Below, piece after piece: positions 13,785-60,494 of a DNA stretch of 64,000 nt (its first letter is position 1; each line of letters starts with the position of its first letter). The position numbers and the translations under genes are program-made. Origin of the DNA: Eledone cirrhosa (Eukaryota); contig OZ024743.1 of the NCBI GenBank assembly GCA_964016885.1, forward strand, positions 310,930,001 to 310,994,000, read 5' to 3'. The notes under the pieces were generated by a model, which worked only from the letters and a program-made list of their open reading frames with translations, made no database searches and was not told the DNA's origin.

Positions 13785-14340
13785 GAATAAAAATAGACCA
13801 AGGGATAAAATGACCTCACCAGTAGTCTGCTGATTATCGTTGGTATTTCGATGCATTAAAGACTAGATAACTAAAATCAGTGCGAGCGATAACTCAATTA
13901 AGTTAACGGGATAGTGGGAGTTGAGGAAGGCAAGAGGTGAAGGAGAAATAAAAGGTGATAGCAATAAAGTGATAGAAAAAATACGAACCACAGCGAAGGG
14001 AAAAATTATGTGAATGAAGAATGGCGTGCTGCGTTGTTGCGAACATGAACATATGACATTTTATCCCTTGGTCTATTTTTATTCATATGTTCATGTTCGC
14101 AACAACGCAGCACGCCATTCTTCATTCACATATGTTTTCCCTTCGCTGTGGTTCGTATTTTTTCTGTCACTTTACTACTATCACCTTTTCTCTCTCCTTC
14201 ACCTTTTGCCTTCTTCAACTCCCCCTGCTGGTCACTCACTCTCGGTAATCAGCAGACTACTGATGAGGACATTTTATCCCTTGGTCTATTTTTATTCATA
14301 TGTTCATGTTCGCAACAACGCAGCACGCCATTTTTCCTTC
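13785..14340. mobile_element. Non-autonomous PLE-like element with inverted arms and a 212-bp partial tandem repeat
   Basis: 13915-14057 is inverted relative to 14083-14223, and 14056-14120 is repeated at 14268-14332. Flanked by (TA)/(TG)n. Contains a CTGATGA remnant at 14260. Confidence 0.7.
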
Positions 14341-16254
14341 ATTTATATATATATGGCCTCAGCCGGATGGCTGAAACAGGTAAAAGGGTAAAAGAGTAAT
14401 ATATATCATATTTGAGAGTATGTTTGTATATATGGATGAAACGGTTAAAGTAACTGCAAAATATATTAGATTTAACAGAACTTTTAAGACGTTTAGCTAA
14501 AATATTTCTCAGTGAAGATTCCATGAAAACTGTTTCAAATATATTGTTCTGGTTTATTTAGTTTTTGTTGTTTGCTTGATTGTTTTTATAGGTGACATCC
14601 ATTCAAATACAGAGGAAATTCCTCTGTAATGAAACTGACGAGGCATAAAATAGATATCGTTCAAACTAAAAGATTTTGTCACCGTATGACCACCAAAATA
14701 GTAAAGCGAAATATTGAGGAAGTGAGAGAGTGGAGAAAGAAGGAGAGAATGGAGGGGATAGAGAGAAAGAAAGAAGGAAAGAAAGAAAGACAGAAAAATA
14801 CACTATTGTGTTATATTTGGCTTTTTTTAACCACCTTCTAGATTCTCTTTCAGAGGTGATGAGATTACACATTTGATAGAATGCTTTGCTTTATTCGTTT
14901 CCGCTCTCTGTACTCTTCGCATGTTGTGGTCGATAAATAAACTACTAATCCAATAATGAAACGTTGCTTCCACACTCTAGCTTTTTTTGTCGCTCTCACT
15001 ATCTTTCCACCCCTTCTCCCTCTCTCTCTCTCTATCTATCTATCTATCTATCTATCTATCTCTCTCCTGCGTTCAGACCAGCAAAGGAATGAGCTCAGTG
15101 ACGTTTAAAAGACGTCCAAGATATATCACAATAATTTCAGTACGACTCCATGAAGGGTCATGTAACTTTTCTATTATGTATTTTATGTTTTGTTTTAACT
15201 TATATATTGTTAAGATGAGAATCTGGTTAGTGCTAGGGAAATTACAGCTGTAATACTTTGTAACTATGATATAAAGAAGATTTAAATGAGATTACTTAAT
15301 AAGTTACATCTAAAAGGTATTAAGATTCCAAATAGTGGCTTCTGTTATTTCGTGTATTCCTGCCAACTCTTACCCTATGATCATGAATCTTTAGTAATGT
15401 TTGAAAGTGTACGGATATGTGGTTAGAATGTCTCAGAAAAGAATCGCTGGACAGATTTACGGGCAAAACTAATCGGCAGAAGACTCAAAGGTAGAACCCC
15501 TCGAACTAGATGGTTGGATTGCTCTTTCGTCACACATTCTGTGACCTCCTCAGTGACTAATTTGTTATTTTGTGCCTCTCTTATGTTTTATATATATATA
15601 TATATATATATATATATATATATTTATATATATATAGTTTGGAGGAGATGAGACTACAACGTCAAGCTTATCAAACAGTAAGATAATAATGTATTCGTTA
15701 TTTTAAGTTAATATTATTTAACATTAATAAATATATCAACATTAAAATATATTTAAATCATACTTTAAAATATCGTACTTCAGGAAGCATCAATGGAAAT
15801 AGGGCGGAAATAATGTATTTGTAAACCCCTTGAAACAAATCTAAAATAATTAGACAGTACACTAAATTTCTCTTTATCTAACATCAAATAACCATTGAAG
15901 TCCGAAATATAAAAGCAAAATTAGTCCTCCAGATTTAATACCATAATGTTAACAATCGAACCCAGTATCCAGATATTTACTGCAAGCAAATATATCTGAA
16001 ATAAGTAAAAGTAGCTCTCAGGTTAAGCCCGTCCCGAGAGGAGCTACCGCTAATAAGATTGTCTGGGTCAGCAGTTGTTTACTGTAGACAAAAGGCGTAA
16101 TAAATAAAATAATCACAAATAGTGGGGTTGGGGATCAGTCATGCTACTGTGTGCTTTCTCAGGCATGCAGTTTTTTAATGGGTGTCTGGAGTCTGGAATG
16201 TTAAGCGAGAATGGATGTGACGGAGGGTGGCACTCATGTGGGTATGTGATAAAT

Positions 16255-16470
16255 ATGGTTTCTGATATATGCATAAAGCCAGAAATTTGGGAGGAGGGGA
16301 AAGTCGATTAAATCGACCCCAGTGCGTGACTGTTACTTTATTTTACCGACCTCGTAGGAATGAAAGGCAAAGTTAACCTCGGCGGGATTTGAACTAAAAT
16401 CATAAAGGGACGTAACTCTATGCTGCAAAGCATGGTGTCCGACTCTCTACCGATACTGCCAATCCACTTC
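16255..16470 (-). mobile_element. SINE family A, near full length
   Basis: GGAGGGGGAAAGTCGATTAAATCGACCCCAGT..GAAAGGCAAAGTTAACCTCGGCGGGATTTGAACT (reverse B box). Confidence 0.8.
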
Positions 16471-16699
16471 CCTGGTATGTGATAAATATGACAATTGTGT
16501 CCAGAATATATTTTGAATTAAGCACATCACAATGTCATAAAATGTTAAACTCGTCAAACCTATATTATAATTAGGCTTTGTTAATCACATGATCAGTATT
16601 GACCATTGTTTTGTGCCGTGCTACCTCAGTGGTTAGAGAGCTGGATTAAATAATTGATTTATTCAGCAATCTAGTCTCCGGGTTCAGTTTAGATCTGCG

Positions 16700-16925
16700 C
16701 GCATGAAGAGTGTATACCACGGTTTCTGTGGCATGAACGACTGAGAGTACAAGGGTATCCCCTGGACATGATATAATCCATCACAGGGCTAAACCTCGAG
16801 CTATTGCTGGTACACATTTTCAGCTTCTGGGTATACCGGGGCAACATGAAATGAAATGGTTGGACTCTGTAACACAACACACAACCAAGTCCAGGAATCG
16901 AACGTAAGTTCAACACGTTTACCTC
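16700..16925 (-). mobile_element. SINE family B (CORE-like)
   Basis: GCTGGTACACATTTTCAGC..GCAACATGAAATGAA..ACACAAC..CCAGGAATCGAAC. Related copy at 46470-46680. Confidence 0.6.
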
Positions 16926-58559: not shown

Positions 58560-58720
58560 GAGGCAAAATAGCAGAGTCGATAGGACGTCGGATAGAAAGC
58601 TTTGTGGTATTCCCTCTGGCTCTCTGCGTTCGAGTTCAAATCCCACTGAAGTCAATGTTGCCTTTCATCTTTTCGGGGTCAATAACTAACATGCTAGTTC
58701 ACTAATGGTGTCGGTTCTTC
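58560..58720 (+). mobile_element. SINE family A
   Basis: GAGTTCAAATCCCACTGAAGTCAA..GCCTTTCATCTTTTCGGGGTC. Confidence 0.7.
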
Positions 58721-59434
58721 CTCTATATCTTTCACGCTATCACCCCACCCCCTCTCTCTCTCATTCTTTCTTACTTTGTCTTCGCATTCTCTTCGGCTTG
58801 CTTCGTAAACCAAAATTATATATATATATATATATAGAGAGAGAGAGAGAGATGGATAGATAGACCATATATAAAGACCATTTAGTGTCATGTTTCTACC
58901 AAGACATATGGGAACGAAATTTATTTATGAACATCCGTTAAATTATGCTCCAAATACCAACTTAATAACGAGGTTAGTTGTATTACTTTATACCTCTACA
59001 TTTATGGTTATTTCCAAAATGATTTGAACATCATAAGCACTGTCTTTCATTAAACATATGGCAAGAAAAGGGTGAAGTGGAAGCTCTAACTAATCAGGAA
59101 TACTAACTATAATGTTAATAAATTTCATATGAGACAAATGTAAACTAACTTCTTTTAAGAAAACAAAACTTCTGACAGAATAATACTACGTTATTGATAT
59201 ATATAATCATATCCTATTTTTGCTTCCTTTGACACAGTAGGAAATAAACAAAAAATGAAAACAGAAAAAAAAACAGATTAGGCGTATTCAATATTTGCAA
59301 TGATTGCAAAAAAAGAAAAGATGCTGATGAATATGAACAATAGCTGACTGAAAAAAAAAGCGTAATGGAAATAGAATGGCTAATATTACAGTGTATCTGT
59401 ATTAATGAAGTTACATTGATAAAAACATGCTTAC

Positions 59435-59576
59435 AACTGTGAGAGCTTTGTCTAGAACATTATTAGTGGCAGCAATGGGAATGCTTGCGTCTGCTGGTTT
59501 ATACGGATAGCAATGCCCCGACTGAGTAATGTAATTATAGCGGAAAGATGTACGCTTTCCCAGTTCGGTCAGGTTA
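59435..59576 (-). CDS. Zincin metallopeptidase, most 5' exon identified (upstream exon(s) not found)
   Basis: ttttcgtttcacgtttcag| NLTELGKRTSFRYNYITQSGHCYPYKPADASIPIAATNNVLDKALTV |gtaagc. Ends in phase 0, matching the next exon. Confidence 0.8.
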
Positions 59577-60494
59577 CTGAAACGTGAAACGAAAACAATA
59601 CATAATTAGGATTGATTGCAATATATTCAACAAATTATATATATATATATATATATATATATATGTATGTGTGTTTGTGTGTGTGTGTGTGGGGGGGGGG
59701 GTAATAAACCACACAATATAATTATTCCATTGCTCAAGGTTTCACGGAGTCAGACGATTCTAACAGATGAACGGATTCAGACGATTCTGTTAGAATCGTC
59801 TGACTCTATGAAACCTTGTGTAATGGAATAATTATATTGTGTTATTTATTACATAATTAAATAGCTCTGTACTATACATGGAGCACTCTTCTTTCCTTTA
59901 CCTTTTACACGGAAATACTTAACATATATATATATATTTATATATATATATATATTTGCGGTCGTGAGAATGACTACTCAATATTATAGAAAAGATTAAT
60001 ATTTTCATTATTGGGACTAAAGTTTGAGTTTTGTTACTGTGGAGCTTCTCCTGTGCATTCACAGTACACCCGTCTTGTATGAAATTCCACAGTAACGAAC
60101 ACTCAGATGTGGTCTTGATAAATATATATGTATGTGTGTGTGCGTGCGAAATGTAAGTCTTTCGTAAATCTTCCTTAAAATAATAAGTAAGAAACAATAT
60201 ATGGATGTTTATAAAGATACTGGACACAAACGAAGTAAATATATTTAGATAATGAACCTTATACAAACTGACACCAGCAAATTACGTCATATTTGGACTA
60301 GAAATGAAAGCACCCATTTGAAATGCATCTACTATATGAAATTAGTTTCACTCTAGAATAAATCATTGCAATACTTGAAGGAAAATTGTTATCACATATT
60401 TCTTTTTATACCTCTATAGATAAATTATATTCATAACGAACTGGCACAAATGGACATTTAATAAGCAAAAAAATCCTGGTCTAGCTCGTATATA

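Follow-up and report, generated by a model that had tools for sequence, protein, structure and literature searches.

The window, by which we mean the whole 64-kb stretch of DNA that was analyzed, contains (TA)n arrays and a series of inserts built from two inverted arms that lie head to head (Table 1). Such arms had been proposed at 10 named loci by an earlier sequence-only reading and were present at all 10, far above chance. When a local inverted-repeat scan was run on the TA-masked window, 41 inverted-repeat rows were obtained, compared to 1, 0, 0, 0, and 0 in five block-shuffled controls. For a count of TA proximity, the 41 rows were grouped into 18 loci (36 paired-arm ends), a set that omits sub-hits, three short hairpins (5247, 21094, and 44380), the 29222/29470 pair, two extra SINE-like pairs, and one cross-locus pair. 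A TA run of at least 10 nt lay within 5 nt of 9 of these 36 ends, where the chance rate was 0.008 per end (binomial P ~1e-11). Paired arms summed to 6,038 bp at PLE-type loci versus 972 bp in other inverted repeats, both lists having been made by hand.

Table 1. Positions of inserts, elements, and the interrupted array in the window
Feature	Position	Strand or arms	Remarks
Family B two-armed insert	9860..10173	left arm (-), right arm (+)	overlap 4 nt only
Two-armed insert, ~213-nt tandem unit	13786..14341	left arm 13786-14056 (-), right arm 14057-14341 (+)	
Family A two-armed insert	20234..21093	long arm 20234-20880 (-), short arm 20881-21093 (+)	
Element D1	21094..21381	+	5' 30-nt palindrome, hammerhead at 21195, 3' end in (TA)n
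Interrupted (TA)n array	23086..27210	+	split by inserts 23870 and 24886
Family A two-armed insert	23870..24373	short arm 23870-24047 (-), long arm 24048-24373 (+)	
Family B insert, 491-nt tandem unit	24886..26761	left arm 24886-25924 (-), right arm 25925-26761 (+)	
Near-perfect 199-bp hairpin	28489..28922		36-nt tail on right arm; degenerate hammerhead
Element D2	29075..29706	+	hammerhead at 29614, 3' end in (TA)n
One-armed family A copy	30989..31146	-	ends at the short arms' internal site
One-armed, 5'-truncated, frameshifted putative Hydra-type PLE	31563..34857	-	homologue search and motifs
Heterologous head-to-head pair	35778..38196	family B arm 35778-36356 (-), Hydra-like PLE 3' part 36353-38196 (+)	
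Two-armed insert	38633..39100	left arm (-), right arm (+)	arms 147/147 identical
Old equal-armed hairpin	47025..47169		1-nt loop; right end only in (TA)n
Locus of the same layout	47368..47579	left arm (-)	~50-nt tail on left arm; both ends in (TA)n
Family B insert, 446-nt unit	47697..48396	short arm 47697-47828 (-), long arm 47829-48396 (+)	
134-bp hairpin	54072..54523		1-nt loop; 180-nt tail on left arm; both ends in (TA)n
PLE with CCHH GIY-YIG	54540..56499	left arm 54540-55748 (-), right arm 55749-56499 (+)	
67-bp-arm locus	59702..59923	right arm (+)	right arm with loop, hammerhead, and 71-nt tail into (TA)n

The arms were unequal, as had been claimed, at 9 of the 10 named loci; at 47025 both arms end at the same site. 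Several substitutions between arms, also part of the original description, were found at five loci (10/144, 5/210, 7/62, 28/693, and 6/67), and the other five were nearly identical, with 0 to 2 differences (1/167, 2/581, 0/196, 0/147, and 2/123). By nucleotide similarity, the 10 loci represent 8 families: 20234 and 23870 belong to one (family A) and 24886 and 47697 to another (family B). The short-arm stops that had been quoted were confirmed at 39100-39103 and 54536-54545. The last named locus is real, with bounds of 59702-59923 instead of 59710-59841, its 71-nt tail having been overlooked. Two further loci of the same layout (47368 and 54072) and two more informative ones (9860 and 35778) were absent from that reading. 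Within a locus, the arms differed by 0.6 to 2.4% in family A and 0 to 1.6% in family B, compared to 3.8 to 14% and 4 to 16%, respectively, between copies; because the within-locus differences were the smaller, the two arms of a locus in these families appear to derive from one source. One-sided tails measured 36 (28887-28922), 40 (56460-56499), and 45 nt and were longer at other loci. Loop and tail lay on one and the same arm at five loci (13786, 20234, 23870, 47697, and 59702), and near loop-less hairpins were found at three (28489, 47025, and 54252). The tails at 38633, 54540, 28489, 59702, 47368, and 54072 had no second copy in the window, and the element origin of these six is therefore unproven.

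Outward polarity was supported by an ORF or a hammerhead at 7 of the 10 named loci, by a degenerate motif at 2, and weakly at 1, and the hammerhead motifs pointed outwards at most of them. The association of the inverted arms with PLEs and hammerheads held. Our own descriptor scan for type I hammerheads yielded 13 matches in the window scoring at least 4.5, 8 of them at least 8, compared to 3 matches in all, none above 6, in six shuffles. Hammerheads lay at 20547-20427 (score 13) in locus 20234, at 24053-24186 (score 12) in locus 23870, and at 38952-39058 (score 11) in locus 38633. The scan found no hammerhead at 13786, 47368, 54072, or 54540. It missed those of family B (24886 and 47697), which rest on alignment to 35968 or on reading, as well as candidates seen by eye at 28489, 47025, and 54540. 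Rfam returned nothing in the window at gathering score. An HH9 match at 35915-35986 (E 1e-4, 26 bits) fell below the gathering score of 52, nothing was returned for 37850-38190, and a whole-window E-value scan gave, among the 150 of 574 matches listed, only microRNA-type hairpin matches and one snoRNA match. Minimum-energy folds contained stem II in most candidates and often lacked the full three-way junction, and for this reason we claim no ribozyme activity.

Two of the 8 families, the family A element and 54540, carry RT and GIY-YIG evidence for an EN+ PLE. The element at 31563 has its RT (34848-33928) and linker plus GIY-YIG (33174-32719) pieces in order, with a 40 to 53% match to relatives of 700 to 800 aa, and a 3' UTR of approximately 1.15 kb that constitutes family A, to which two named loci (20234 and 23870) belong. 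Its alignment contains a DKT motif, a CxCX5C linker, and CxxC and CxH near the C terminus and lacks CCHH; the copy is truncated at DKT, and its nearest relatives carry the N-terminal motif as RWR/RWK. Pfam gave no family for the three ORF pieces, so the identification rests on the homologue search and motifs, by which we class the element as a putative Hydra-type PLE. Though truncated, this copy measures 3,295 bp, longer than is general in the Hydra clade (<3 kb) owing to the long 3' UTR. The long arm holds both the loop and the tail at 20234 (tail of ~126 nt; short arm adjoining element D1) and at 23870 (tail of ~134 nt; (TA)n at both ends), and copies 30989 and 31563 stand in tandem with TA between them. 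At 54540, the left arm holds a 505-bp loop (the ORF) and the right arm a 40-nt tail, with an 18-bp palindrome at the junction (55731-55748). The ORF matched Pfam GIY-YIG (E 4e-5), and its relatives carry RVT_1. Membership in the Hydra clade was rejected because CCHH is present in the endonuclease, and in the Naiad clade because GIY-YIG follows RT in relatives P0023, P0024, and P0026; the element appears to represent another C-terminal EN clade.

Family B consists of tandem non-coding units of 310 to 491 nt, each with a type I hammerhead whose core is intact in consecutive units, and it had no match to PLE peptides; we regard it as a retrozyme-like tandem repeat for which self-cleavage and circular RNA are predicted only. 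All four family B loci in the window are head-to-head and two-armed. At 24886, each arm extends past the other, in register, and a 32-nt duplication starts at the left arm's end. At 9860, which has (TA)n at both ends, the left arm consists solely of the tail, which agrees with family B at 62/62 positions, and the right arm stops at the tail start. In the 35778 hybrid, a single case, the arms belong to different families, both 3' ends lie in (TA)n, and the join has no TA remnant. Four of the seven family B arms begin 6 to 26 nt past the hammerhead cut in a 493-nt unit. Among the remaining loci, 13786 has its 45-nt tail on the right arm, arms differing at 10/144, and weakly supported polarity; 38633 has a tail of ~110 nt on the left arm and, on the right, a loop supplying the rest of the hammerhead core and of stem I. 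Relatives of 28489 and 47025 were found at 13026-13080 and 53420, the latter with a hammerhead-like motif. Element D2 contains a 46-bp inverted arm (29200-29245) whose end has no (TA)n contact, and PLE markers were looked for at 47368 and 54072 with none found.

The arms had been described as running with their 3' ends outwards into (TA)n, and this was so within 2 nt for 15 of the 20 insertion ends, with both ends entering (TA)n at only 5 of the 10 loci (23870, 24886, 28489, 38633, and 54540). At 13786 and 59702, the left arm reaches (TA)n only after a stretch of (CA)n or C9. The insert at 20234 adjoins another element on its right, the one at 47025 is bordered on its left by unique DNA, and the left end of 47697 borders a TA run of no more than 9 nt, with an array 19 nt away. 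In the 23086..27210 array, the TTC-type interruption holds a single orientation in all three pieces (17, 14, and 14 forward; 0 reverse), which indicates that the (TA)n target predates the inserts. Manufacture of the (TA)n by reverse transcriptase was rejected, as the array interruptions are not mirrored across the inserts. These arrays are insertion hot spots, and at least 8 inserts fall in the region from 23 to 39 kb. Flanked by TA arrays, a small element at 17881-18063 bears 18-bp terminal inverted repeats, and an inverted pair at 2787/3134 has TA in its center.

The internal stops of the arms recur: one family A site was used in four copies, and in family B, one site was exact in three copies and within a few nucleotides in a fourth, and a second was used in two copies. 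A match to TA of at least 3 nt was found at 5 of 8 distinct TA-joined stop sites on a strict reading (P = 0.001; null rate, 0.121) and at 7 of 8 once two anchors were shifted by hand past a substitution; this count excludes four stops with no (TA)n joint, and of all 17 stops, strictly scored, 8 reach 3 nt. The same microhomology, together with loss of the tail, would equally result from a later deletion that joined the (TA)n to an internal TA.

Taken together, these results make it probable, at roughly 60%, that the loci are insertions of PLEs and non-coding passengers into existing (TA)n, mostly by twin priming. The PLE protein would nick both strands of the array, as occurs in vitro for another PLE, and each 3' end would prime reverse transcription inside the RNA, at a site from a small preferred set, consistent with the recurring stops and the usual 2- to 4-nt TA target matches. 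The two cDNAs would halt at different points, seen as different 5' ends; their 3' ends would join head to head via 1- to 3-nt matches or a short fold-back, as the junction sequences suggest, and each cDNA would be copied into the other's second strand. The tail would then correspond to the interval separating the two starts, and the loop to that separating the two stops. A first cDNA halting at the second start site would leave no inverted repeat (9860), and two primers on different RNAs would give a hybrid (35778, one case). Priming from both strands, as the sequence-only reading proposed, explains four or five loci best. Its proposed cause, the self-complementarity of (TA)n, is not established: for a lizard PLE, nicks on both strands are extended at an ATT motif without a TA repeat (PMC11167929), and rotifer PLEs show the same inverted layout with ordinary 8- to 10-bp target-site duplications (PMC3846280). 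The further proposal of that reading, that this process supplies a large share of the hairpins genome-wide, is likewise not established, as the paired-arm totals given above come from this window only.

Of twin priming and the explanation already published for head-to-head repeats in PLEs (PMC3846280), the window favors the former. In the latter, a single cDNA or an antisense template folds back, copies itself, and uses an internal TA to connect to the target's other end. Such snap-back self-priming predicts the loop-less hairpins at 28489, 47025, and 54252 and the junction palindromes of 18 bp (55731-55748) and 30 nt (21094), which count against twin priming, and it agrees with arms from one source; it probably operates locally at some junctions. 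Under this model, however, the second arm must be a sub-copy of the first. At 9860, 24886, 38633, and 54540, neither arm qualifies as a sub-copy of its partner, the other eight two-armed loci being uninformative. At 9860 the overlap is 4 nt and the tail is proven element sequence, at 38633 and 54540 opposite arms hold the loop and the tail, at 24886 the arms overrun each other, and 35778 joins two families. Even with arms 147/147 identical, self-priming at these loci needs an extra deletion or template switch. Later deletions could rescue it, and the five loci with loop and tail on the same arm fit both models; as the general route, we consider self-priming unlikely. Fold-back via hammerhead stem II at 23870 and 59702 was rejected because the short arms begin within the stem and not after it. 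One-armed copies (30989 and 31563) were also counted against twin priming.

We judged it improbable that two independent opposite insertions into one (TA)n hot spot were later trimmed by deletion. The arrays are clear hot spots, the tandem family A copies are split by TA, and independent insertion is a fair reading of the 35778 hybrid and the 21093/21094 join, but the central junctions have no TA remnant and, in families A and B, an arm always resembles its partner at the locus more than it does other copies of the family. Breakage of a (TA)n cruciform followed by fold-back duplication of host DNA, with no retroelement, is suggested by the very long TA arrays and the TA-centered 2787/3134 pair; at the 10 named loci it is contradicted by array orientation and family membership, as the arms are bordered by TA on the outside, no inversion is seen in the arrays that flank them, and the arms themselves consist of dispersed repeats carrying hammerheads or PLE ORFs, and it is very improbable. 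Equally remote is an artefact of library preparation or assembly, through chimeras from amplification or long-read fold-back: the arms at two loci (28489 and 38633) are identical and TA arrays are hard to sequence, but arm divergence reaches 11% and includes private indels, each tail is on one side only, the same stops are used at several loci, and the flanks show no mirroring. MITE or Foldback DNA transposons inserted at TA, of which the 17881-18063 element with its terminal inverted repeats between TA arrays is reminiscent, are the least credible source, contradicted for families A and B and 54540 by hammerheads and RT/GIY-YIG sequence in the arms and, in families A and B, by varying arm length, loop, and tail side with no fixed termini, though 47368 and 54072, with no PLE marker, may fit.

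A broader version of twin priming is possible but doubtful: it would be routine for PLE insertion into (TA)n, with one, perhaps dimeric, complex priming two RNAs to give retrozyme-PLE hybrids, family B cDNA usually running to the hammerhead-cleaved RNA end, and PLEs being this genome's chief source of long hairpins. If twin priming is true, a rare LINE-1 side reaction is the normal route for PLEs, and if family B cDNA ends at cleaved RNA, the ribozyme would have an in vivo role unseen in vitro. The dense hairpins, here apparently within a host intron, could supply double-stranded RNA. The host belongs to an animal group noted for heavy RNA editing. The architecture is known, its members here are new, and together they are a usable genomic test of an open mechanism, because the signatures that separate the models (the arm with the loop, the arm with the tail, abutting arms, and two-family pairs) can be counted in any PLE-rich genome without new bench work.

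The layout, put forward in the sequence-only reading as a recurring architecture, is not novel. As described in PMC8557442 and PMC3846280, EN+ PLEs share with the loci described here 5' truncation, a head-to-head inverted truncated copy, a one-end tail, junction palindromes, the (TA)n target, and the lack of a readable target-site duplication; how PLE tandem and inverted repeats form is named there as an open task (PMC8557442). The inserts in the window differ in being mostly 0.1 to 2 kb of the 3' end, with tails of 36 to ~180 nt rather than 30 to 40, and the abutting non-overlapping arms and the two-family pair are not described in the consulted passages of the two papers. With the Hydra clade, as set out in PMC8557442, family A shares DKT, the CxCX5C linker, a C-terminal GIY-YIG without CCHH, the CxxC and CxH motifs, the hammerhead, and (TA)n insertion; it differs in that a truncated copy is already 3.3 kb (generally <3 kb in that clade) and in its very long hammerhead stem II.

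In vitro, Poseidon, a PLE of the lizard Anolis carolinensis, likewise nicks each strand and extends it, and its tail is set by two start sites inside the template (PMC11167929). Its cut is at ATT and its starts are not homologous to the cut DNA, whereas most stops here share 2 to 4 nt with (TA)n. Its template is not cleaved at the hammerhead (PMC11167929); the arms here run through the hammerhead in most families, and in contrast to Poseidon, the four family B arms noted above begin just past the cut. LINE-1 twin priming also gives two inverted fragments with 3' ends out and an internal second primer, and the proposed LINE-1 dual priming uses two RNAs (PMC2837659). A typical L1 product carries an internal deletion, ends in poly(A), and is flanked by target-site duplications (PMC2837659), whereas the arms here mostly overlap by 50 to 750 bp, giving hairpins, and poly(A) is absent. 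Finally, family B shares non-coding tandem hammerhead units with non-LTR retrozymes (bioRxiv 10.64898/2026.07.22.740005); its head-to-head two-armed (TA)n inserts are not described in the consulted passages of that work, in which non-LTR retrozymes are proposed to be passengers of PLEs.

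The two-armed architecture, in which the 5'-truncated 3' ends of Penelope-like elements (PLEs) lie back to back in (TA)n, is real. A local inverted-repeat scan of the window returned 41 rows, compared to 0 or 1 in each of five shuffles, and all ten loci named by the sequence-only reading (designated here by their starts) were confirmed as inverted repeats. That reading had the 3' ends running out into (TA)n; direct entry was found for 15 of 20 insertion ends, but for both ends at only five of the ten loci. A TA run lay no more than 5 nt from 9 of the 36 paired-arm ends at the 18 retained loci, compared to a chance rate of 0.008. 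Arms were unequal, as claimed, at nine loci and equal at one, while the claim that arm pairs often differ by several substitutions was too broad, with arms 98 to 100% identical at five loci, and the many unrelated families came to eight for the ten loci. Outward polarity followed from an ORF or a hammerhead at 7 of the 10; that of 28489 and 47025 was drawn from degenerate motifs, and that of 13786 was weakly supported. The same layout was present at two additional loci, 47368 and 54072, where no PLE marker was seen when looked for. The inserts at 9860 and 35778, which an inverted-repeat search does not pick up, were more informative. The window has a G+C content of 31% and, after merging, 75 (TA)n arrays totaling approximately 9.1 kb, and its retrotransposon ORFs have their named homologues in Argonauta hians and Octopus bimaculoides, which makes an octopod the probable host.

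A hammerhead descriptor scan of the window gave 13 hammerhead-like matches, 8 with a score of at least 8, and no shuffle match scored above 6. One copy of family B, a retrozyme-like tandem unit (as defined in the available part of bioRxiv 10.64898/2026.07.22.740005), resembled Rfam HH9 with a score below the gathering threshold. The peptides of the family A PLE comprise DKT, CxCX5C, GIY-YIG without CCHH, CxxC, and CxH, in agreement with the same motif list given for the Hydra clade in the accessible text of PMC8557442. Locus 54540 carries the end of another PLE, distinct from that of family A, with CCHH. The families here belong to known kinds, of which they are new or unlisted members; the lists in PMC8557442 may include these Octopus families already. 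At 21093-21381, the short arm of family A passes directly into another element, D1 (21094-21381), whose start is a 30-nt palindrome; this join would reflect either a jump of the template from one RNA to another or the removal of the TA by a later insertion. Three exon-like pieces on the minus strand, one of which (39529-39359) resembled Peptidase_M90 with an E value of 1e-5, slightly below the Pfam cut-off, suggest one host gene, and if so, loci 20234 to 39100 would sit inside a single intron.

Features of the window, by window position
Feature	Position	Strand	Description
Family A, two-armed	20234, 23870		3' UTR of the PLE at 31563-34857
Family A, one-armed	30989, 31563		As above
Family A PLE	31563-34857		Truncated, frameshifted
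Family B	24886, 47697, 35778, 9860		Non-coding tandem unit, 310-491 nt; type I hammerhead
Hammerhead-like motifs	13556, 19359, 21195, 29614, 52336		Between TA arrays, oriented to nearest array; stem III closed by A-U in two
Exon-like pieces	43586-43314, 39529-39359, ~18440-18300	minus	HExxH motif in candidate host gene (18300-43586)
LINE	3348-7087	minus	Almost complete; AP endonuclease, RT (Pfam RVT_1, E 6e-31), C-terminal C2H2 zinc fingers; one frameshift
Inverted arms	2787-3222		89 bp, 97%, (TA)n central (layout opposite to two-armed inserts); by eye like end of adjoining LINE ORF
PLE remnant	11618-12926	plus	Second Hydra-like; ends before its endonuclease
Relative of 28489 family	13026-13197	minus	With 22-bp inverted pair; adjoins the 11618-12926 remnant
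183-bp element	17881-18063		Between two TA arrays; terminal inverted repeats 18 bp (16/18); resembles a Tc1/mariner-type MITE
Remnant	9200-9745	minus	RHN and PD..ELAVPFE motifs in translation, which we take to resemble the restriction-type endonuclease of R2/NeSL-group LINEs; no Pfam match for one piece
Transposase	62900-63700		Presumably mariner-like, decayed (by eye); no Pfam match
(TTTTTTC)23 run	62297-62456		Close to 62900-63700
SINE-like repeat	422-626, 16245-16474, 40479-40902, 41504-41753, 48898-49494, 57307-57498, 60490-60672		Abundant, ~200 bp, no link to (TA)n; one copy ends in 33-bp inverted duplication (41686-41753)
36-bp tandem repeat	78-313		6.6 copies; one frame open; begins exactly at TA array

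Array pieces around 23870 and 24886 carried a TTC-type interruption 17, 14, and 14 times in the forward orientation and 0 times in reverse; nine other counted arrays carried at most one. Because the interruption keeps one orientation across these pieces, the (TA)n target predates both inserts. A mirrored interruption would be expected from fold-back of host DNA, from chimeric reads, or if the arms had generated the TA. Arms within a family A or B locus differed by 0 to 2.4%, compared to 3.8 to 16% from any other copy, which points to one source and a single event for both arms. Array interruptions across 10718-39288 had C almost always on the plus strand and those in arrays at 52832-53350 had G there, a contrast that can be read as strand-biased array growth or mutation.

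A cDNA that folds back and copies itself (self-priming) cannot contain sequence absent from its template, so loci with such sequence separate it from twin priming, in which both target strands start a cDNA. The left arm at 9860-10173 consists only of the family B tail, the one-sided extension beyond arm pairing (62/62 identical), and the right arm stops at the tail start, with an overlap of 4 nt; its sequence marks this insert as a classic twin-priming product. At 38633, where the arms are identical (147/147), the unpaired central loop completes a hammerhead on the right arm and a 110-nt extension lies on the left. The 505-bp loop of 54540 is an ORF in the reading direction of the left arm, and a 40-nt tail lies on the right. 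When 24886 is placed in register, each arm extends beyond the other, and a 32-nt duplication begins at the site where the left arm of 9860 stops. The insert at 35778-38196 combines two families: its family B arm meets the C-terminus and 3' UTR of a further Hydra-like PLE (39% over 44 aa to P0013; weak hammerhead at 38009), no TA remnant separates them, and both ends lie in (TA)n. Stop sites recur among copies. Of 8 distinct TA-joined sites, 5 matched TA over at least 3 nt under a strict reading (P 0.001), and manual placement of two anchors raised this to 7; both counts exclude the four stops lacking a TA join. By eye, central junctions shared 1 to 3 nt at 13786, 23870, 24886, 47697, and 59702 and had an A run at 9860. 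We consider twin priming the most likely mechanism, with a probability of roughly 0.6. That (TA)n self-complementarity drives the priming, and that the process is a major source of hairpins across the genome, are hypotheses of the sequence-only reading.

Self-priming as the maker of the inverted copies ranks second and is rather unlikely. Five loci are compatible with both mechanisms alike, three are nearly loop-less hairpins, and short fold-backs do happen, given an 18-nt palindrome at one junction and a 30-nt palindrome at another. Two identical cDNA ends would, in turn, pair only if palindrome-ended, so palindromic junctions alone do not favor self-priming. No second copy of the singleton tails was found within the window. 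Loss of a tail, with identical microhomology left behind, would also follow if the DNA between (TA)n and an internal TA were deleted later; such deletions could rescue self-priming for 38633, 54540, and 9860, but at the cost of one additional event at each. One-armed inserts are also present. The two-family hybrid at 35778-38196, a single case, may be a serial insertion.

Of seven family B arms, four have their starts shortly past the hammerhead cut, at distances of 6, 10, 21, and 26 nt (493-nt unit), a clustering with a P of 2e-4 under a uniform model for a pattern spotted post hoc, and each of the four loci had one such near-cut arm. Arms of other families continue through the hammerhead, as predicted from the uncleaved template in the available portion of PMC11167929.

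The two-armed PLE architecture is already known and is what a specialist would expect. In the sections available, PMC8557442 describes an inverted truncated copy, a 30-40 bp tail on one side, and (TA)n targeting for PLEs, and leaves how these repeats form as an open task. Among the papers listed, our literature search found no proposal of twin priming for PLEs, although it covered few subscription papers and such absence is unproven. The portion of PMC11167929 available describes nicking and extension of both strands and two internal starts, with no link there from two-strand extension to inverted repeats; its figures S1-S2 are relevant to the start sites. The abutting-arm and two-family inserts allow the open mechanism to be tested from genome data. 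Self-priming was proposed, in the accessible text of PMC3846280, for head-to-head repeats with palindromes at their junctions, and twin priming and dual priming are defined for L1 in that of PMC2837659.
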